Source of the DNA: an uncultured bacterium
GTDB taxonomy: Bacteria; Chloroflexota; UBA5177; JANWHV01
Direction of reading: 5' to 3'
Assembly (NCBI GenBank): GCA_963729625.1
Contig: CAVSOU010000017.1
Span: 64,001-128,000 of the forward strand
DNA: 64,000 bases
Shown: piece by piece, positions 3,150 to 53,654 of the stretch
How positions within the stretch are numbered: position 1 is the first letter of the stretch
Layout of the letters: every line of letters starts with the position of its first letter
Program-made: the position numbers and the translations under genes
The notes under the pieces: model-generated
The model's database searches: none
What the model saw: the letters and a program-made list of their open reading frames with translations, nothing else
Told to the model about the DNA's origin: nothing

Positions 3150-3839
3150 ATGCCAACCAAGGACGCGACGACGATCCTGCGCCTGTCGTACATCATGCGC
3201 GAAGACGATCCCCTGCCGCCCGCGATTCCGCCGCTTCAGCGTGCTTCTATGATGAGTCTGGACCGTGGGGACGATGCAAACGTGTTCATACTCACGCTGG
3301 CCAACCATTCCGGCACCCATGTCGATGCGCCGCGCCACGTCGAGGCCGACGGGCTGCCGATCACGGCGTTCGAGCCGGCAGAATTTCACTTCACTCGGCC
3401 CCTGGTACTCGACTTGCCGCTGGCCGACGGAACTGTGGTCAGCCCAGAGAGCCTCGCCCCTTTTGCCTTGGCTATCGGCGGCGCGGATCTCGTGCTACTC
3501 CGCTTCGGCTATGGCAGGGTCCGCTCACACGAGCCCGCGCGATACCGCGACAGCTGCCCCGGCTTCGGCATTGAAGGAGCGGCGTATCTTCGTCAGCACT
3601 TTCCAGCTCTGCGTGCCCTTGGCATGGACGTACCGTCGCTCTCGTGCATCCGCTATCTGGACCAGACGATGCGCGCGCATAACGTCCTGCTGGGTGGCGC
3701 GGGGTGCCGGTTTCTGGTGATCGAGGACCTGAATCTGGACCAGGACCTCACCGGACTGGCAGAAGTGTGGGTCGCACCGCTGCTGGTCGAGGGCACCGAC
3801 AGTGCGCCGTGCACCGTATTCGGCGTGGTGCGGAGATGA
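3150..3839 (+). CDS. Cyclase-family metal hydrolase (kynurenine formamidase-like)
   Basis: HSGTHVDAPRH motif, LGMDVPS and IEDL. GGAGG RBS precedes ATG 3150. Confidence 0.88.
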   Translation: MPTKDATTILRLSYIMREDDPLPPAIPPLQRASMMSLDRGDDANVFILTLANHSGTHVDAPRHVEADGLPITAFEPAEFHFTRPLVLDLPLADGTVVSPESLAPFALAIGGADLVLLRFGYGRVRSHEPARYRDSCPGFGIEGAAYLRQHFPALRALGMDVPSLSCIRYLDQTMRAHNVLLGGAGCRFLVIEDLNLDQDLTGLAEVWVAPLLVEGTDSAPCTVFGVVRR

Positions 3840-4375
3840 GCGGCGAGACCTACGGCCACACCCCAATTGAGCGCATGTTCGCACTCCGAGATGTCTATGG
3901 TATTGGCTACGACGCGGAGCGAGGAACGCGGACTCCGGTACGGCTTGGCATGGCCGGCGCAGGTGGTGTATCTCAATCCAAGCACCTTCCGGCGATCGCG
4001 TCACTGAGAACGCTCTGGGAGCCGATTGTAGTAGCCGCCATCGCCGAGCCGGACGTTCGGCAAGGGCAGAAAGTCGCGACCCTGTATGGCTGCCGCCACT
4101 ACGCAAGCCTCGAGCAGATGCTCGCGGAGGAGAAGCTGGACGGCGTCGAGGTGCTCTCGCCGGACGCGTTGCACGTCGATCACGCGCTCGCCTGTATCGA
4201 ACGGAATCTCCCCGTACTCGTGGAAAAGCCATTGGCACCGACGTCGGACGCGGCGCGGCTGGTCTGCGAAGCAGCGGATCGCCGCAGCGTCCTGCTGATG
4301 ACCATGGCGAATAAGCGATATATCTGCCGTCAGCGAGGCGCGCCCTCGATGGTCCGTGACATGGCTTCCAGGTGA
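3836..4375 (+). pseudogene. Gfo/Idh/MocA oxidoreductase, C-terminal half missing
   Basis: ATGA overlap with the upstream gene; GAGGVS Rossmann motif and VLVEKPLA. Similarity stops at MANKRY (~4320), after which the frame runs antisense over the htpX 3' end. Confidence 0.75.
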
Positions 4376-7674: not shown

Positions 7675-9171
7675 ATGTTGATGCTCAAGACTCGTGGACT
7701 GGAACATGGAGGCCCAGGGCAACCCGCCTGGCCTCTAGGCAGAAAACTCTTTGCATGGGTTGCCGCCCTTTTCCTCGTCACAACTCTCTTCTCTGGCACC
7801 GCCACCGCTCTACCGCGTGCCGCCGCGGCGGGAACGTCGATTACCGTGCTGACGGTGGGGGATCCGTTCGAATACCAGCTGGTCAAGCTTCTCCCGCAGT
7901 TCCAGAAAGCAACCGGGATCAGCGTGAAGCTGGAGTCCGTCTCCTACGACCAGATGCACGGGCAGCTGGTCAACGCGGCGATCACCCACTCCAGCACGTT
8001 TGACGTGGTGACGCCCGATGCGATGTGGATCTCGGAGTTCGTCGACAACGGCTGGATTCAGCAGCTCGACAGCTATATCAAAGCGAACAAGGCCGAAGTG
8101 CAGCCCGCCGACCTCATCCCCGCCGTCGTATGGAGCCTGGGCGAGTGGAAGGGGCACATGTACGCGCTGCCGATTGCGGCTTACGGACAGGATGTCCTGT
8201 ACCGCACGGACGTGTTCTCGGCCCTGCACCTGCAGGCCCCGCCCGCGGACGCGGCCAGCTGGTGGACCTGGGAGCAGTACCTGAAGGACGTGCAGGCGAT
8301 CAATGGAAAGACGGTCGCCGGGACCAAGCTCAACGGCACCGTGATTGCCGGTGCGCAGCCGGCGCCGATCGTCCACATGTACACGCAGCTCGCCGCGAGC
8401 TATGGCGCGCGGTGGTTCAAATCCTTCCCGAGCAGCCCGAAGTGGGATTTCACGGTAACCCTGAACTCCCCCGCCAATATCAAGGCGCTGTCCGTGTTTA
8501 CCGCGCTCTACCACAACTCGACGCCAGCGGCGGATGCCATGAACTGGTTCCAGGCCGGCACCGAGTTTGCGCAGGGCAAGGTCGGCATGATGTACTGGTG
8601 GACGCCATACAACTACCTGGTCGACAAGGCCGGGTACGAGGTTCCGCAAGCCGCGCCGATCGTCGGCAAGTACAGTGTGGGCGTGCTGCCTTCTGAGCCG
8701 GGTGTGCCGCAGACGGTCAGCGACGGTGGTTGGAGCCTCGCCGTCAGCTCGTTCTCGTCCAAGAAGGACGCTGCCTTCAAGTTCATCGCCTGGGCTACCA
8801 GTGCCAAGACGCAGCTGGCCATGGCCCTGCAGCCCGGCTACCAGTTCAGCGATTTCGCGCATCTGTCGAACTATACGGACGCTTCGGCGCAGGCGGCCTA
8901 CCCCTATCTGGGCGCCCAGCTGAAAGCGCTGCAAGCGGGAAATGGCAAGGCCGTGCGCCCGCCAATTCCGATCTACTCCGTGCTCGAGGGACTCTACGGT
9001 ACGGCGCTAAATGAAGCCATTCGTGGAGCGTCCTCGCCCGCGGACACGCTGGCCAGCGTGTCCAAGCAATTCAACAGCGTCCTCGGTGACGATGCATACG
9101 TTCCGTATCTCCAGCCGTCGTACAACGACACGCTGGCGAACACGGTAGCCCTGTTGAAGAGCCTCAGCTAG
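7675..9171 (+). CDS. Carbohydrate ABC transporter substrate-binding protein
   Basis: Signal-like N-terminus; FQKATGISVKLE, YRTDVF, GGWSLAV and AAFKFIAW motifs of CUT1 SBPs. Confidence 0.92.
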   Translation: MLMLKTRGLEHGGPGQPAWPLGRKLFAWVAALFLVTTLFSGTATALPRAAAAGTSITVLTVGDPFEYQLVKLLPQFQKATGISVKLESVSYDQMHGQLVNAAITHSSTFDVVTPDAMWISEFVDNGWIQQLDSYIKANKAEVQPADLIPAVVWSLGEWKGHMYALPIAAYGQDVLYRTDVFSALHLQAPPADAASWWTWEQYLKDVQAINGKTVAGTKLNGTVIAGAQPAPIVHMYTQLAASYGARWFKSFPSSPKWDFTVTLNSPANIKALSVFTALYHNSTPAADAMNWFQAGTEFAQGKVGMMYWWTPYNYLVDKAGYEVPQAAPIVGKYSVGVLPSEPGVPQTVSDGGWSLAVSSFSSKKDAAFKFIAWATSAKTQLAMALQPGYQFSDFAHLSNYTDASAQAAYPYLGAQLKALQAGNGKAVRPPIPIYSVLEGLYGTALNEAIRGASSPADTLASVSKQFNSVLGDDAYVPYLQPSYNDTLANTVALLKSLS

Positions 9172-47263: not shown

Positions 47264-47977
47264 ATGGGCAGGCTAGGGATCGTTGCGGTGGGTCTGGTGA
47301 GCACATTGATGTTGAGCGCGGCAGTGCCGCGGGCTGTTGCGGCCGGAGCATCGACGCAGAGCCAGACCAGCATTACGGTCAGCGCGGAGGGCTCGACGAC
47401 GGTTGCGCCCGATGTAGCCTTTGTCACGGTAGGCGTGCAGCAGTCCGATCTGCAGGCCGAAAAGGCGCAAAGCGAGGCAAACGCGATCATCGCAGCCGCG
47501 ATCACGCGTATCAAGGCGCTGGGCATCCCGGATCACGACATCCAGACGGCGAGCATCTCGCTGGATCCGCAGTATGACGACCGCGGCATCGTCACCGGCT
47601 TCCAGGCTACCGACACACTCTCCATTACCGTGGAACAGCTGCGCAAGACAGGATCGGTGATCGACGCGGGCGTGGGAGCGGGCGCCAACCGGAACGTGAG
47701 CGTGAGCTTCGGCCTGAAGGACGACAGTCTGGCACGTACCGCGGCGTTGCGAGCAGCAGTCGCAGTGGCACAGCGAAAGGCGTCCGCCGTAGCCGCACAA
47801 TTGGGGATCTCGCTCACCGGCGCCAAAGTGCAGGTAACCGAGAATCTGGCACAGGCGCCGACACCCATGCCATATGCCGTGACCGGCGCTGTGCAAAGCA
47901 CTACTCGCGTACCCACACCCGTACAGACAGGATCGCTAATCATCCAGGATAGCGTGACGGTGACGTACACGTTGTAG
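47264..47977 (+). CDS. SIMPL (DUF541) secreted protein
   Basis: Signal peptide; ITVSAEGSTTVAPDVA, DIQTASISLDPQYD and IDAGVGAGAN. Confidence 0.9.
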   Translation: MGRLGIVAVGLVSTLMLSAAVPRAVAAGASTQSQTSITVSAEGSTTVAPDVAFVTVGVQQSDLQAEKAQSEANAIIAAAITRIKALGIPDHDIQTASISLDPQYDDRGIVTGFQATDTLSITVEQLRKTGSVIDAGVGAGANRNVSVSFGLKDDSLARTAALRAAVAVAQRKASAVAAQLGISLTGAKVQVTENLAQAPTPMPYAVTGAVQSTTRVPTPVQTGSLIIQDSVTVTYTL

Positions 47978-48058
47978 GCGACAGATTCACCGCTGGAACT
48001 GCCACCGCACGGCCTGTCAGGGCGTGCCTGTGTCCTCCTGGTGAAAAGCTCGTATGGC

Positions 48059-50521
48059 TCAGCCCGACTTGGACGCGCTCGCATGTGCCACGGCAGCCAA
48101 CGCGGTGTACGCGCCATGCGACTTATCTTGTCCTATCGTCGTCAGGGACAATTCGGCCGGCTTGCGTTCCGAGGCAGGATCGCGACTGACCCACTCGAGG
48201 TAATTCGAGATGGATACGTTCACCGGCTGTGAGGCAAGGAGAGATAGTGTTCCATCCGCGACTGCCCGCTCGAACGCTGCAACCGCGCCTGGGTGGAACT
48301 GGGTCGCGGTACCCTCGAGGATGCGTGCGCGCGCCTCTTCCCAGCATAGCGCGGGACGATACGTGCGGCTGCTCGTTATGGCGTCGAGCGCGTCTGCGAC
48401 TCCCAGCACTGCCGCATCCAGCGGGATGATGTCGCCGCTCAGACCGTCAGGGTAGCCGCTTCCGTCCCATCGCTCGTGATGGTAACGCACGGCAGGTAGC
48501 ACGTCCTGCAGAAAGGGCACCGAGGCGAGCATGCGTTCGCCGATGAGTGAGTGGTGCTTGATCGTCGAGTATTCCTGAACCGTGAGCGGCGATGGCTTTG
48601 CCAGTATGGCGTCGGGCACGCCAATCTTGCCCACGTCGTGTAACAGGCCGGCAAGCTCAATGCGGGCAACGACGTCGTCTGAGAGCTGCATGGCGCGGGC
48701 AATGATGCCCGCGTAGGCGCTGACCCGCTGTGAGTGGCCCTGCGTGTATGGGTCCTTCGCGTCGACGGCGGCCGCGAGGGCGGTGACCGTGGCGAGATTG
48801 GCGTGCTGCAACTGGGCGGCCAAGGCCGTCGGATCATAGTCGAGGCTGGCTTCCGCATCCTCGGGTCGCGCAACGCACCCCTTTCCGGCATGCTTCGCGG
48901 CGTACGCAGCCTTGTCGGCCGCCCGGATCAGACCCTCGCGCGTCTGGGCATGATCGGGCAGCGCGGCCACGCCGATACTGGCCCGCACGGAGACGGTGGC
49001 TCCGTTCTCGATCACCAGGAGCGAGGCAATTGCCTCGCGTGCGCGCTCGGCCAACATTGTTGCTCCATCAATATCGGTTTCCGGCAAGATGACGACGAAC
49101 TCGTCGCCTCCGTAGCGAGCCGCAATGTCCCCTGTACGGATGCTCCTGAGAAAGGCCTTCGCTATTGCCGCCAGGACCGCGTCGCCGACCTGATGGCCGA
49201 AGCTGTTGTTCACCGTGCCAAAGTCATCGACATCGATCATCATGAGCGCGAGTGGGTGGCCGCCCCGTTTGGCGCGGGCAATCTCCTCCTCAAGTCGCGT
49301 TTGGAAGGCCCGGTGATTGAGGAGGCCGGTGAGCCCATCCTGAGAGGCGAGTGCAACCGCGCGCTCATGGAGCCGCGCGTTCTGCAGCGCGATTGCTGCT
49401 TGGTTCGCCAGGATGGCTAACGAATCGCGATCGTCGTCGGTCAGCGTCAACGTCCCACCAGAGAGGAGCAGCAGCCCCGAGGAGCCCTGGCCGTCCGGAT
49501 CAAGCAGCACCGGCAGCACGCGACCGATACCGTCGAGGTCGACCTCGCGCATGTTCGTCTCGGGGCTGGGCACGGGCAGCCACATCGGCGTCAACCTGGG
49601 CGCATCGTCCGGTGTGAACACGACTCGTCTGAGCAGCGAAGGATCGTGATCGTCGCACAGGTATCCTGTGACCACCCCAGACCCGATGATGGCGTGCGCC
49701 GCTTCCGCCAGGGGCCGGAGCAGGTCGGCGCGCGTATGCTGCAGACGTAATCCCTGGCTCGCGGTGAGGACGGCTTCGAGCTGTTTGTTGCGCCGCAGAG
49801 CCTGGCTGCGCTCTTCCGCCTGGGCGACGGCATAGAAGGCGACCCGCAGGGCCACAACCGGGAGGACTGCCAGGGCAAGCGCCAGGGGATCGAAGCGCCA
49901 CAATATTGTAGCGGCAATGCCAATCGAGCTGGCGGCGAGCTCGGGCAAGAGCGCGTGGCGGTATTCCTGCCACCACAAGGTGAATGGAGACCTTCGCTGC
50001 ATCAGAGCGAAGACCCCCAGCATCATGGCAACGTCGAGGACATAGAAGAGCGTGATGAGCAGCACCAAGCTGGGAAGAGCAGGCGCCAGATCGGCGGGAC
50101 GCAGCAAGTGCGTGGGCGAGGCGACAGGCGAGAACAACGCGGTGGTGAGGCCCACTGCCAGCGTGGGGTGGCTGGTATTGAACGCGCGTTTATAGATCGG
50201 CGTGTGACGGCGGAGGGCCACCGAGACGACAGAGGAGACAAACGTCAGCAGCAGCGGAAACGGCGCTGGAAAGAGCAGAATCGCGGCCACGTGCACCGGC
50301 GTCGCGAGATCCTGTACGACGGTACGGCTGACTTGCAGCACCGTATAGTGGGCGGCCAGAGCCAGCAGCAGGAAAGCGCCGAGAGCCAGAAGGCGGTCGT
50401 GCGGTTCGCGCGCCAAGCTGCCATGTACGATGAGAGGGCCGGCTTGCACGAGCACTACGCCAACGCACGCCAGGTTCAGCGCCCAGAGGTAGCATCGAAG
50501 TGGCCATGGCATCGGTTGCAC
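48059..50521 (-). CDS. Membrane sensor (MASE9-like)-GAF-GGDEF-HD-GYP c-di-GMP enzyme
   Basis: About 7 N-terminal TM segments with KRAFN, then a GAF-like region ending AIALQNARL. RTGD I-site plus RYGGDEF. DAKDPYTQGHS, HDVGK and HHERWDGSGYP. Confidence 0.93.
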   Translation of the reverse strand: MQPMPWPLRCYLWALNLACVGVVLVQAGPLIVHGSLAREPHDRLLALGAFLLLALAAHYTVLQVSRTVVQDLATPVHVAAILLFPAPFPLLLTFVSSVVSVALRRHTPIYKRAFNTSHPTLAVGLTTALFSPVASPTHLLRPADLAPALPSLVLLITLFYVLDVAMMLGVFALMQRRSPFTLWWQEYRHALLPELAASSIGIAATILWRFDPLALALAVLPVVALRVAFYAVAQAEERSQALRRNKQLEAVLTASQGLRLQHTRADLLRPLAEAAHAIIGSGVVTGYLCDDHDPSLLRRVVFTPDDAPRLTPMWLPVPSPETNMREVDLDGIGRVLPVLLDPDGQGSSGLLLLSGGTLTLTDDDRDSLAILANQAAIALQNARLHERAVALASQDGLTGLLNHRAFQTRLEEEIARAKRGGHPLALMMIDVDDFGTVNNSFGHQVGDAVLAAIAKAFLRSIRTGDIAARYGGDEFVVILPETDIDGATMLAERAREAIASLLVIENGATVSVRASIGVAALPDHAQTREGLIRAADKAAYAAKHAGKGCVARPEDAEASLDYDPTALAAQLQHANLATVTALAAAVDAKDPYTQGHSQRVSAYAGIIARAMQLSDDVVARIELAGLLHDVGKIGVPDAILAKPSPLTVQEYSTIKHHSLIGERMLASVPFLQDVLPAVRYHHERWDGSGYPDGLSGDIIPLDAAVLGVADALDAITSSRTYRPALCWEEARARILEGTATQFHPGAVAAFERAVADGTLSLLASQPVNVSISNYLEWVSRDPASERKPAELSLTTIGQDKSHGAYTALAAVAHASASKSG

Positions 50522-50566
50522 GGTGTCCTCACTTGCAGGGCGTGCGCCCTTGTTGGCCAGTCGAGC

Positions 50567-51160
50567 TCAGCGCGAAGCCTCCATGCACCGTTGAGGCTCG
50601 GGCCTGAAAGGCCTTCGGACAGCGCCGTAGGCCGCCGTGGCCGCGCCGAAGGTGAGCAAGGCGTCGCCCACGCTGAAGACGTTGCCGTAACCTTGAGCAA
50701 ACCGGACTGGGATGACGTCGCCGAGAACAGCCAGCTTGCTCGAGGACGTCGAGAGCCCCGTGTTGTTATAGACGTGCTGTCCGGAGATCTCCTGCACCTT
50801 GGCCTGGCCTTTCACGGCGGCCATTGCCGCGGCATCAACCGGCATATGGCCGCCGTTCAAGGCGATAACGGTCACGTTGAGTGTCAGCCCGAGCAGCGCT
50901 ATGCGTACGGCCGGTCCGAGGCGCCAGTTTCGCAAGGCGCCGATGGTGACCATGCCGAGCGCACCGGCATAGATCTCGCCACTGTGATGCAGAACGAGGC
51001 CCGAGCCGCGTACCCCCGGCGCGTAGAGCAGCAACTGGATGGCAAGAGAGCCGATCAGAAAACCGCTGCCTCGAATGGGCAGCGCTGCAAGATTGCTGAG
51101 CGAGCCGCCGCGCAGGAGCGCAAGAAACACCGCTACGAGTACCGGTATCACAAGAAGCAT
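50567..51160 (-). CDS. DUF5317-family membrane protein
   Basis: RGGSLSNL, NGGHMPV, LGDVIP and VFSVGD motifs. GGAGG RBS before ATG 51160. Confidence 0.85.
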   Translation of the reverse strand: MLLVIPVLVAVFLALLRGGSLSNLAALPIRGSGFLIGSLAIQLLLYAPGVRGSGLVLHHSGEIYAGALGMVTIGALRNWRLGPAVRIALLGLTLNVTVIALNGGHMPVDAAAMAAVKGQAKVQEISGQHVYNNTGLSTSSSKLAVLGDVIPVRFAQGYGNVFSVGDALLTFGAATAAYGAVRRPFRPEPQRCMEASR

Positions 51161-51318
51161 GCAACCTCCAGCGGGATCTGACTGCCTGGGATCTCCGCAG
51201 ACGACTCGGGTCTCGGGAATGAGTCCGCGATGGTGGGTTCCCGGGGTGCCTATTGAGCTGGCAGGGCGAGGATCATGGCATCCGCGCCCTGCACGCCCAA
51301 GCACCGAACGCTAGAACG

Positions 51319-51450
51319 CTAGAACCACTGGGTGCCGGCGCCTGATGCCGCCACAAAGGCGACGACCGAGCCGAGAGCAAGCGCGGCGCGCTGGATGACC
51401 TGCATGTTCCATACGTGGCCGTGTCGAATGCCGAGAGTAATTCGCTTCAT
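51319..51450 (-). CDS. 43-aa signal-peptide-like precursor peptide
   Basis: GAAGGA RBS; sequence MKRITLGIRHGHVWNMQVIQRAALALGSVVAFVAASGAGTQWF. First gene after a promoter-like site. Alternative in-frame starts at 51501 and 51405. Confidence 0.7.
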   Translation of the reverse strand: MKRITLGIRHGHVWNMQVIQRAALALGSVVAFVAASGAGTQWF

Positions 51451-51510
51451 CGGTTGGCAATCCTTCTGCAAAATCTTCGTTCCACAAGAACCTGTTGCCA
51501 TGGCTCCTAA

Positions 51511-51538
51511 ACTATACAATACGAAATGACTCGGTCTA
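51511..51538 (-). promoter_or_regulatory. Putative promoter of the peptide operon
   Basis: Minus-strand TAGACC-16 bp-TATAGT in an AT-rich patch. Confidence 0.5.
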
Positions 51539-51699
51539 GTACCCATTTGGACCATGCACGATCGGCTTACCTCGCGGTCTCATCCGGTGGCTGAACACTG
51601 CTGATGCGGGCACTCGGCGCCTTTTCTGGGAGTGACCCGATGGCCTCGGGTTGAGGAATCGAGCAGCCTATCCTCGCGCATCCGAGGCCTCGATCCTGG

Positions 51700-51906
51700 T
51701 CAGCGCGGATCCGGAGCGGCGCGCATCGCCGTAGGCGTTGCCCAAAATTGATTCAAGAGGAGAGCGTTCTCTTCCACCGCCGCGCGCAGCACAGCGTCGT
51801 CGGTGATTCCAGGTTCTGACTCTGCAATGTACAGCACAACGTTGCCTTCGCTTCTCAGCCGCTCAACGGTGTGCCGATCCACGCCTTCGTCAGCGACGAG
51901 TCTCAC
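51700..51906 (-). pseudogene. DUF5615 PIN-like toxin, truncated
   Basis: VRLVADEGVD...PGITDDAVL...ENALLL, then the expected TxDKDFG is lost. GTGA overlap with DUF433. Confidence 0.75.
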
Positions 51907-52169
51907 GACGCAATGCCAGCGAATGGATAGACAACGTCGGCCCGTAGCGCCTGAGCGGCGAAACGCAACGCCGCGGCGACGCCTTCTCTTGTCAGCCTGG
52001 GGTGAGCGTCCAGGAGTTGATCGACGGTCTCCCCTGCAGCCAAGCTGACTAGGATTGACTCGACGGTGATTCTCGTTCCGGTGATGATTGGCTTCCCCAT
52101 CATGACGGCGGGACTTGAAGTGATGAGCGCCGAGGCCGCGGTAGAACCCAGGTCGTTCGTGTCGTCCAT
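51903..52169 (-). CDS. DUF433 antitoxin-like protein
   Basis: PAVMMGKPIITGTRITVESIL...HPRLTREGVAAAL. Confidence 0.9.
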   Translation of the reverse strand: MDDTNDLGSTAASALITSSPAVMMGKPIITGTRITVESILVSLAAGETVDQLLDAHPRLTREGVAAALRFAAQALRADVVYPFAGIAS

Positions 52170-52451
52170 CTAAAGCCATGCGTCTCATTGTTGACGTGCC
52201 TCTAAAAGACCCACAGCTTACAAGTCAGTGTAGATCGTGAGACTGCGCGCGCACGAGTTACTTAAGCTCCGCCAAGTCGCGTGGGAGCCAGTCCAGTGGC
52301 GTACGAGCGGGACGGAACGGAGATGAACCTCGGCATCATCAGGTGATGGCAGCGCGGTTCAGGTCGTACTGGGCAGTGACCCCGGCATTTCATGCTCCTT
52401 ATGATGCTTTACTATGACATTAGTGCCCGGTCCAATTGGAGATTCATCTCG

Positions 52452-52670
52452 ATGGCAAGAACAACGGTCTACCTCGACGATGGCCTGCGCGAGCGATTGC
52501 AGCAGGTTGTCCCGCCCCGTAAGTTGAACCGCTTCATCAATGAGGCCGTGGTCGAGAAGGTCGCGGCGCTGGAGCAACGCCAGCTCGAATAGGCGATGAA
52601 GGAGGGATATCTCGCCAACAGCGATGGCCGTGCGGTCTTGAATCAAACTGGGCTTGGCGTGGAGGGCGAC
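52452..52670 (+). pseudogene. RHH antitoxin (MazE/EndoAI-like) pseudogene
   Basis: MARTTVYLDD...NRFINEAV...QLE*AMKEGYLA...LNQ with an in-frame TAG at 52590-52592. No toxin follows. Confidence 0.65.
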
Positions 52671-53654
52671 ATGCGCTATTTCCTGACCGGTGCGACCGGC
52701 TTTATCGGCGGATCCGTAACGAGGCAGCTGATCGGGGCCGGCCACGACGTCGTAGCCGTGGTACGCGACCCGGCAAGGGCGCGCAACCTAGCCGATCTCG
52801 GCGTAAAGCTGTACGTGGGCGACGTGACCGACAAGGCAAGCATGCGCGAGGCGATGACCGGGGTCGACGGTGTCTTTCACATCGCCGGCTGGTACAAGAT
52901 CGGCGTGAAGGATAAGCGCGACGGCGCCCGGGTCAATATCGAGGGCACGCGCAACACGCTGGAGCTGATGCGGGATCTCGGGATCCCCAAAGGTGTCTAC
53001 ACCAGTACCCTGGCCGTGAACTCCGATACACATGGGCAGCTCGTCGACGAGAGCTATCGCTACATGGGGCCACACATCTCGGAATATGAGCGGACCAAGT
53101 GGGTCGCGCACTACGAGGTGGCGGAGCCGATGATCGCAGCCGGCTTGCCGCTGGTGATCGTGGAGCCGGGCCTGGTGTATGGACCCGGTGATGCCAGCGT
53201 GACAGGCGCCGTGCTGAAGCAATACCTGCGGAGGAAGCTGCCGATAGTCCCCAAGCGCGCGGCGTACTGCTGGGGCCACGTAGACGACATCGCTCATGGC
53301 CACGTGCTGGCCATGGAGAAAGGCGTGCCGGGCGAATCCTACATGCTGGCGGGACCGGCCTGCACTCTCGTCGAAGCCCTGCACATCGCCGAACAGATTA
53401 CCGGCATCGCAGCGCCGCGGCGCCGAATTGGACCAGGGCTGTTGCAGGCCGCGGCCGTCATCATGGCCGGGCTCGAGAAAGTCGCGCCGGTGCCGGACGG
53501 CTACAGCGCCGAGTATCTGCGTGTCAGTGCAGGCGTCACGTATCTCGGGAACAATGCCAGGGCAAAGCGCGAGCTGGGCTTCAGCCCGCGTCCCCTACGC
53601 GAGGGTCTGGAGGAGACGCTCCGTCACGAGATGCGAGTGCTCGGAATCGTATAG
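52671..53654 (+). CDS. NAD-dependent epimerase/dehydratase (HpnA/DFR-like SDR)
   Basis: TGATGFIG, VFHIAG and YERTK. GGAGG RBS. Confidence 0.92.
   Translation: MRYFLTGATGFIGGSVTRQLIGAGHDVVAVVRDPARARNLADLGVKLYVGDVTDKASMREAMTGVDGVFHIAGWYKIGVKDKRDGARVNIEGTRNTLELMRDLGIPKGVYTSTLAVNSDTHGQLVDESYRYMGPHISEYERTKWVAHYEVAEPMIAAGLPLVIVEPGLVYGPGDASVTGAVLKQYLRRKLPIVPKRAAYCWGHVDDIAHGHVLAMEKGVPGESYMLAGPACTLVEALHIAEQITGIAAPRRRIGPGLLQAAAVIMAGLEKVAPVPDGYSAEYLRVSAGVTYLGNNARAKRELGFSPRPLREGLEETLRHEMRVLGIV

Follow-up and report, generated by a model that had tools for sequence, protein, structure and literature searches.

A micro-protein and DUF5317 pair as a candidate membrane input for a cyclic di-GMP enzyme in an uncultured Chloroflexota bacterium

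The inputs of most membrane-anchored cyclic di-GMP (c-di-GMP) enzymes are unknown, and a compact set of partner genes makes the input of one sensor type, the MASE9 domain, directly testable. We describe such a set in a 64,000-nucleotide stretch of DNA, hereafter the window, from an uncultured Chloroflexota bacterium of the lineage UBA5177 (assembly GCA_963729625.1, contig CAVSOU010000017.1, positions 64,001 to 128,000). It consists of a 43-codon gene for a membrane micro-protein, a DUF5317 gene and a gene for a membrane-bound GGDEF/HD-GYP protein, called the receptor here. Among the closest described systems are the MASE9-HD-GYP phosphodiesterases of the Thermotoga maritima TM1467 type and HdgA of Streptomyces venezuelae, in which a polytopic membrane sensor is likewise fused to HD-GYP. 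According to the MASE9 passages of Galperin and Chou, who define the domain, HdgA is its only studied member, no MASE9 ligand is known and the ligand is argued to bind within the membrane; these passages name no small gene, and DUF5317 occurs zero times in that source (10.1101/2021.11.05.467447). In S. venezuelae, hdgA forms an operon with hdgB, and the passages on this operon mention neither DUF5317 nor a small upstream gene (PMC6205966). Our literature search on DUF5317 and PF17248 found no paper (supplements lay outside the search), and searches on HD-GYP with small membrane proteins and on c-di-GMP with micropeptides returned nothing relevant.

Outside c-di-GMP signalling, MgrB and SafA are small bitopic membrane regulators of PhoQ. 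Like them, the micro-protein is in the range of 30-50 residues, is predicted to pass the membrane once with its N-terminus inside, and is encoded beside or co-regulated with a membrane signalling protein; unlike them, it has DUF5317 as its partner and c-di-GMP turnover rather than a histidine kinase as the putative output, and both the family and the partner are conserved across phyla. Peptide pheromones offer another comparison. LspA and Eep release enterococcal pheromones from the signal peptides of lipoproteins, and in agr and signal-peptide-derived pheromone systems, as here, a small hydrophobic precursor gene lies beside a gene for a polytopic membrane protein and a signal may come from a signal-peptide-like sequence. 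Unlike agr, none of the three proteins matches the AgrB family in Pfam, the micro-protein alignment (A2, below) has no conserved Cys, the window ORFs scanned include no kinase or RRNPP receptor, and the tail plan of the micro-protein is conserved across phyla and not strain-specific. The combination of micro-protein, DUF5317 and c-di-GMP enzyme is an undescribed, candidate membrane signalling unit, not a proven pheromone system. Its constant part is the pair of micro-protein and DUF5317, and the c-di-GMP enzyme is a usual, non-obligatory companion.

The three genes are co-oriented on the minus strand, as a sequence-only reading of this DNA had stated, and they form a genuine conserved module. 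The micro-protein gene and the DUF5317 gene are separated by a spacer of 158 nucleotides (nt), and 45 nt lie between the DUF5317 stop and the receptor start. The genes and the receptor domains are:

51319..51450, minus strand: micro-protein gene, 43 codons plus stop; basic N-terminus, one transmembrane helix, S-G-A-G junction and tail TQWF, as read from the translation
50567..51160, minus strand: DUF5317 gene, 197 residues, matched by PF17248
48059..50521, minus strand: receptor gene, 820 residues, from the translation of its open reading frame (ORF); start GTG at 50521 (alternative ATG at 50512)
49805..50512, minus strand: MASE9-like polytopic membrane domain, receptor residues 4-239, from hhalign with no direct Pfam match
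48881..49348, minus strand: GGDEF domain, receptor residues 392-547, PF00990 at 158.3 bits, motifs from the translation
48314..48775, minus strand: HD-GYP domain, receptor residues 583-736, PF13487 at 125.9 bits and PF01966 at 73.9 bits, motifs from the translation

The predicted product of the small ORF (51319..51450, stop included) is the 43-residue MKRITLGIRHGHVWNMQVIQRAALALGSVVAFVAASGAGTQWF. It has the signal-peptide-like composition claimed for it, with four Lys or Arg among residues 1-21, the core AALALGSVVAFVAA, and then SGA and GTQWF. The ORF is enclosed by a stop-to-stop frame of 78 residues (51319..51555), in which an in-frame upstream ATG at 51501 would add 17 residues. We kept the 43-residue start because these 17 residues are not conserved as protein and their DNA, aligned to that of the closest orthologous locus (L042, from the same genus), is in differing reading frames in the two genomes. 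AAGGA stands 10 nt upstream of this start, and L042 has TTG at the same start codon with GAGG 6 nt upstream; on this comparison it is the best supported start. Versions of 60 and 78 residues were rejected on the same two grounds. Between the window and L042 the small ORF is identical at 96 of 132 nt with zero gaps, and its differences fall 10, 6 and 20 times on codon positions 1, 2 and 3, whereas the spacer that follows is identical at 86 of 155 positions, with gaps. The substitutions in the ORF thus look like those of a coding sequence. Neither Pfam nor NCBIfam gave a family match for it. A 243-nt contig from a metatranscriptome library spans 51192-51433 at an identity of at least 99%, and a contig from a second RNA library spans 50876-51082, both of which document presence in an RNA library and not transcription; none of the sequencing runs screened held at least half of the sampled sequence words. 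Judged by its conservation, the 43-codon ORF is confirmed as a genuine gene.

The family to which this gene belongs is large. A second genome of the same genus (G190) has three loci with a small ORF, with the tails GTHWF, GSQWF and TTMWGGR, and many other Chloroflexota carry a micro-protein gene directly upstream of stand-alone DUF5317 genes. A search with a single DUF5317 protein gave 5 related loci. In Meiothermus luteus KCTC 52599, the peptide MKKLAFKILTLVAALVALAMAAGADASWQ is followed by a MASE9-HD-GYP gene (MASE9 at 70.6 bits, L102) and then by DUF5317; a Bacillota metagenome-assembled genome (MAG) has a peptide ending in LSSGACWSFVGK, a further Chloroflexota MAG one ending in AGGAGFRW, and a Thermoleophilia MAG (L104) two tandem peptides ending in GSGAGYKWW and AAGAGQKWTK. 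The conserved small ORF upstream of DUF5317 homologues, on which the sequence-only reading had staked its proposal, is therefore present across genera and in four phyla, and in the form that had been predicted, a hydrophobic core leading to G-A and a short, often aromatic tail.

The micro-proteins have 24-48 residues and share a common plan in which a basic N-terminus and one transmembrane helix are followed by a G-A that is near-invariant and by a short tail, usually containing Trp. In alignment A2, which holds 32 distinct members, A38 is invariant, G37 is kept in at least 90%, and the consensus is MK..R....L..LA.L.LA.GA...W. Pfam and NCBIfam scans of all 32 assigned no family and gave single chance matches only (E>=0.019). 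A profile search with A2 matched 341 database proteins at E<=0.01; among the 120 matches listed, all named proteins are called 'hypothetical', and most are of a 47-residue type in which GAP is followed by [EDST]DGG and a few residues at the end. In bacterial gene catalogues this would be a new entry, a micro-protein family that is widespread and for the most part unannotated. The N-terminal segment is conserved (ITLGIRHGHVW as against VTSGVRYGHIW in the window), and other N-termini are KINRQHIQL in the 47-residue type and MKW in another group. With a mean of 2.6 Lys or Arg before the helix and 0.5 after G-A, the micro-protein is predicted to have its N-terminus in the cytoplasm and its G-A-tail end outside, where the Asp pair of DUF5317 described below is predicted to lie as well. 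Small residues stand at -3 and -1 of the junction, as at a signal-peptidase site, and many members have Pro at +1. Pro at this position blocks signal peptidase I. In several lineages the peptide gene runs up to or into the DUF5317 gene, the gap from stop to start being -1 to +25 nt, which points to equimolar partners.

Tandem micro-protein genes were seen at two loci: L088 (G077) has one at 8604-8696 and another about 60 nt upstream, encoding identical 31-residue copies, and L104 has two differing copies (0-based 3595-3867). A reading of the peptide as a lipoprotein was discarded, Cys after G-A being limited to the paralogue in this genome and to L105. An apparent fusion of peptide and DUF5317 at L051 was also set aside, as the two frames differ.

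To follow what the micro-protein accompanies, we used a strict pattern (hydrophobic window, G/A-rich junction, tail of 3-18 residues, start codon with Lys or Arg) on both strands of 42 long loci, 486,200 nt in all. Such ORFs are rare, 31 in all, and specific to these loci: 28 of them share their strand with a DUF5317 gene no more than 2.5 kb away, and at these hand-picked loci 28 of the 44 DUF5317 genes have such a peptide at that distance. Near 15 MASE9-type c-di-GMP genes whose fetched stretch holds no DUF5317, it found none (0/15), and the single strict candidate in the 145,258 nt of these loci lies at a locus end and is unlike the family. A looser look at the 600 nt upstream of the same 15 genes showed some small hydrophobic ORF at several loci; only L116 and L119 are noteworthy, and only L116 resembles the micro-protein family. 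At L116 (G108:C117) the small ORF MSRISNIIGRIALVLGAFATIAPGAVDLFNITWH lies 106 nt ahead of a MASE9-HD-GYP gene, DUF5317 is absent from the fetched stretch, and a search of genome G108 found none.

The peptide follows DUF5317, not MASE9. It is found with cytoplasmic PAS(-GAF)-HD-GYP partners (L045, L046, L048), and at L042 the peptide-DUF5317 pair has an aminotransferase, an MgtE_N-CBS protein and Nramp as neighbours and no adjacent c-di-GMP gene. It is because the peptide is missing at MASE9-only loci and present without MASE9 partners that we treat micro-protein and DUF5317 as the constant pair; for the same reasons the earlier claim that the peptide binds the transmembrane domain of the receptor fares badly.

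The tie to c-di-GMP enzymes is nevertheless frequent. Of the 44 DUF5317 genes, 24 have an HD-GYP domain encoded no more than 500 nt away and 29 no more than 3 kb away, and two more DUF5317 genes flank a single gene for an 898-residue GAF-GGDEF-EAL protein (L050, G284:C7), a locus at which the strict pattern found no peptide. Among 301 sampled genomes of the phylum, 92 have DUF5317 (a tally that includes the unpublished genome G226); 42 are MASE9-positive, and 31 of these 42 also have DUF5317, which bears out the proposed co-occurrence with MASE9-type c-di-GMP enzymes. When the positions of the two sets of matches were compared by hand, 21 of the 49 MASE9 matches had a DUF5317 match no further than 3 kb away. 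DUF5317 also keeps company with transporters of the major facilitator superfamily (MFS): among 11 long or atypical forms that were scanned, six are N-terminal fusions to MFS_1 or MFS_3, of 623-741 residues (L032, L034, L035, L037, L038, L039), and at other loci DUF5317 directly follows an MFS gene. The fusion genes directly follow a MASE9-HD-GYP gene, and in most cases the peptide gene precedes the HD-GYP gene. Both the DUF5317 and the MASE9 family match in Thermus thermophilus and T. maritima, which served as search controls, so tractable hosts exist.

The DUF5317 protein of the window matches PF17248 at 87.1 bits (cut-off 25) over profile positions 3-148 of 151, and its probable start is ATG 51160, with GGAGG ahead at 51165-51169. 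The AlphaFold2 model (mean per-residue confidence, pLDDT, 92.9) consists of five helices with a subdomain, partly of beta structure, that spans residues 102-163. Across 35 homologues 11 residues are invariant, D148 and D166 among them, and these two are kept in 43 of 44 further DUF5317 genes, among them the MFS fusions. In the remaining one (L086, G064:C12), DUF5317 is divided into two overlapping frames of 138 and 164 residues, probably by a frameshift or an assembly error. Lys and Arg amount to 0.19 per residue in loop 17-31, 0.26 in loop 77-82 and 0.16 at the C-terminus, as against about 0.06 in both loop 46-53 and the subdomain; from this bias we predict an N-out, C-in topology in which subdomain 102-163 is extracytoplasmic and D148 and D166 both face outward. 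Searches for relatives of known structure gave little: a PDB sequence search with the DUF5317 profile returned chance-level matches only (best a carbamate kinase, E 0.081), Foldseek against the PDB nothing at E<=0.001, and the named clusters of the ESM Atlas (PF17248 skipped) no usable match, while in a wide structure search the best hit reached Z 6.1 with helix fragments and no clear fold relative.

In the receptor, Pfam and the reading of motifs agree with the claim of an intact GGDEF domain with RxxD I-site and an intact HD-GYP domain: RYGGDEF is preceded by the I-site RTGD five residues upstream (RTGD-IAARY-GGDEF), and HDVGK and HHERWDGSGYP are present. The protein could both make and break c-di-GMP. 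The claimed MASE9-type membrane domain stood in part. Pfam MASE9 (PF20972, cut-off 24.3 bits) has no match in the receptor at E<=0.1 and none in the whole genome (G000). However, hhalign of four transmembrane domains from the receptor's own genus against those of eight DUF5317 neighbours gave 98.5% (E 2.2e-15, 230 columns), and of these eight, four are over the MASE9 cut-off (L038, L035, L036, L014), three are sub-threshold and one is without a match. Because its profile aligns with MASE9-positive DUF5317 neighbours, we call the membrane domain of the receptor MASE9-like, on profile similarity. The claimed GAF domain was not recovered, since Pfam GAF gave nothing in the window receptor at E<=0.1; in the orthologues L043 and L044, GAF_2/GAF_3 match at E of about 1e-4, below cut-off, and a related protein at L050 is over cut-off. 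Unlike the MASE9-HD-GYP phosphodiesterases, the receptor has the order MASE9-like domain, GAF-like region, GGDEF, HD-GYP.

The leader and the spacer carry further features:

51511..51538, minus strand: promoter-like site TAGACC-16 nt-TATAGT, from a promoter scan
51259..51293, minus strand: hairpin directly 3' of the micro-protein stop codon, 13 pairs, 3 compensatory changes against L042
51162..51208, minus strand: predicted helix pairing with the DUF5317 Shine-Dalgarno sequence GGAGG (51165-51169), 14 pairs, 4 compensatory changes against L042

The 158-nt spacer folds better than shuffled sequences (z = -2.39), and the compensatory changes in its two helices (3 and 4) come from a comparison of two sequences only. 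No T-run follows the hairpin at 51259-51293. Rfam, searched at 47500-53000 with permissive thresholds, gave no riboswitch or leader family and only the M23 sRNA at E 0.14; neither the c-di-GMP-I nor the c-di-GMP-II riboswitch matched in the leader. The promoter-like site that the sequence-only reading had placed before the three genes does exist at 51538..51511, and its TATAGT is kept in L042, but alone it is not significant because one such site was found in 4.5 kb and 0.7 are expected by chance. Together with TATAGT, an upstream box, CCAAATGGGTACT (about 51538-51550), is conserved in L042. In a wider frame the box reads ATGG.CC.AATGGGTACT (51538-51560, minus strand), lies just upstream of the -10 element and, in contrast to the DNA around it, is near-identical in L042. 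Possible roles are those of an operator or of an unusual -35 region.

We give about an even chance to the reading that micro-protein and DUF5317 together are a membrane input device for the c-di-GMP enzyme. The micro-protein would be bitopic, starting in the cytoplasm and ending outside, and DUF5317 would be its obligate partner, engaging the G-A-tail end on the outer face, the side of the two Asp. Within the membrane, the MASE9 domain would relay the state of the pair to the enzyme, possibly alongside the cytoplasmic N-terminus of the micro-protein, and the signal would shift the balance between c-di-GMP synthesis and hydrolysis. Both the physical contact and the direction of signalling are points that we infer. 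As to how DUF5317 engages the micro-protein, we slightly prefer stable binding to cleavage at G-A. If the proposed input role is true, it gives DUF5317 its first function.

Several observations weigh against such a device. No strict-pattern peptide accompanies 16 of the 44 DUF5317 genes, at least three of which are misses of the pattern (variants at L047, L096 and L097). The link to c-di-GMP is frequent and not obligatory, because 15 of the 44 DUF5317 genes, that of the closest orthologue L042 included, have no HD-GYP within 3 kb. The 42 loci were hand-picked from the DUF5317 search list and are not a random sample. The MFS fusions and adjacency, the tandem peptides and the hairpin spacer are easier to reconcile with a product that is processed or exported than with a fixed subunit, and the c-di-GMP link could run the other way, with DUF5317 as the output. 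The RNA-library contig, finally, speaks for presence only, and translation of the small ORF is predicted.

Cleavage stays under consideration because of the -3/-1 residues with Pro at +1, the tandem copies, the MFS fusions, and the hairpin spacer with its helix at the ribosome site. We consider it rather unlikely that DUF5317 is a new family of outward-facing membrane aspartyl peptidases, with dedicated micro-protein substrates cut at G-A and a product that serves as the in-membrane or juxtamembrane ligand of MASE9-type sensors. Such a signalling pathway from peptide to c-di-GMP would, if real, be the first one, and it would occur in no fewer than four bacterial phyla. We are equally doubtful that a juxtamembrane aspartyl peptidase of this kind releases a tail or stub that acts on the producing cell, be it as an autocrine signal or by regulated proteolysis, with the MFS module perhaps handling the product where present. 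A known protein for comparison is LspA (signal peptidase II), like DUF5317 a small membrane protein whose two Asp lie close to the outer leaflet and within the final third of the chain, and which has, as presumed for DUF5317, a signal-peptide-like substrate. The two conserved Asp of DUF5317, 18 residues apart and predicted on the outer face, lie in the motifs LGDVIP and VFSVGD, to be compared with VVDFVY and VFNLAD in the canonical LspA of this genome (C10:215332-215727). An hhalign comparison with an LspA profile of 35 sequences, one of them from the unpublished genome G038 (locus L068), aligned both Asp motifs (P 0.0097 across 116 columns, and P 0.0054 across 45 once the profile was enlarged) and scored 22.1, as against 13-14 for reversed controls and 11.6 +/- 2.0 for 30 column-shuffles (maximum 17.1). 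In the structure search, chain 5dir_A, which we take to be LspA, ranked 19 of 48,161 chains at Z 5.2, within the noise band of the tool (root mean square deviation 3.0, 94 aligned residues), and its 20% identity is the highest among the best 50 of these chains.

In the same hhalign test, however, the MASE9 membrane domain, to which DUF5317 is unrelated, reaches a similar score (21.6, P 0.022). Neither the fold match nor the profile match to LspA rises above noise. LspA has four helices. DUF5317 differs in having five, Peptidase_A8 (PF01252) has no Pfam match in it at E<=0.1, and most of the peptides lack a lipobox Cys. The empty Foldseek and PDB searches, the stop/start overlaps and a conserved cytoplasmic segment that a mere leader would not need also speak against processing. 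We regard the likeness to LspA as local and inconclusive, and homology with LspA and peptidase activity of DUF5317 as hypothetical. Of the claim that DUF5317 cleaves the precursor, what survives is thus the pair of conserved, predicted outward Asp and this local motif.

The sequence-only reading went further, with a short released peptide such as (A)GTQWF binding the transmembrane domain of the receptor. In such a model the tail would act as a diffusible pheromone of the quorum type, and the receptor would perceive it with its MASE9 domain. The gene order of precursor, membrane protein and membrane receptor is what such a system would show, and paralogous modules do differ in their tails (GTQWF and GCGWW in this genome, GTHWF, GSQWF and TTMWGGR in G190). 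Pentapeptide signals exist in Bacillus, namely the Phr peptides. We nevertheless hold this model to be decidedly unlikely, and a strain-specific diffusible pheromone unlikely, because the tail plan G-A-x-x-x-W recurs in four phyla without diversification and the cytoplasmic N-terminus is conserved, which also makes the analogy to agr/com systems a poor one. The peptide moreover occurs with PAS-HD-GYP partners or no adjacent c-di-GMP gene and was not found with the strict pattern at any of the 15 MASE9 loci that lack DUF5317, and the window ORFs scanned include no histidine kinase, RRNPP regulator or AgrB-like gene. Alternatively, the pair could be an output or have a separate envelope or transport function, the micro-protein being an accessory subunit of a DUF5317(-MFS) transporter or enzyme and the adjacent c-di-GMP enzyme regulating the pair or being merely co-expressed. 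Small transporter subunits such as KdpF and AcrZ are common, and the MFS fusions, the MFS genes directly ahead of DUF5317 and the DUF5317 genes without HD-GYP nearby would be at home in this account. It seems unlikely to us all the same, given that HD-GYP is the dominant neighbour whatever the sensor (MASE9, PAS or GAF) in four phyla and that the Pfam scan shows no c-di-GMP-binding domain in DUF5317. That the small ORF is untranslated and its conservation that of an RNA leader or promoter element is hardly credible: conservation at the nucleotide level and the predicted helices in the 5' region and spacer would suit it, but the same protein plan occurs in four phyla with unrelated DNA, the differences from L042 are enriched at third positions, the ORF is free of the indels seen in its flanks, and 341 database proteins match the family profile where Rfam has no match.

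Returning to the module itself, the same genome holds a paralogous one (L107, G000 C10:834356-841182) with a 38-residue peptide, a DUF5317 gene and a convergent gene for a 786-residue GGDEF/HD-GYP protein. This second DUF5317 gene, at C10:838194-838805, matches PF17248 at 100.5 bits, and an ORF about 200 nt upstream of it ends in LVMASGAGCGWW (tail ASGAGCGWW). Upstream of the paralogous module lies a divergent gene for a 1068-residue BTAD-AAA_16-TPR regulator of the large SARP type; a scan of the neighbouring window ORFs found no BTAD-AAA-TPR regulator beside the window's own module. The latter is flanked by unrelated genes, a DUF433/DUF5615 pair upstream and a convergent SIMPL/DUF541 gene downstream. 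The upstream pair, an 88-residue DUF433 protein and a DUF5615 fragment at 51700-52169 on the minus strand, adjoins the module and has the appearance of a toxin-antitoxin-type pair.

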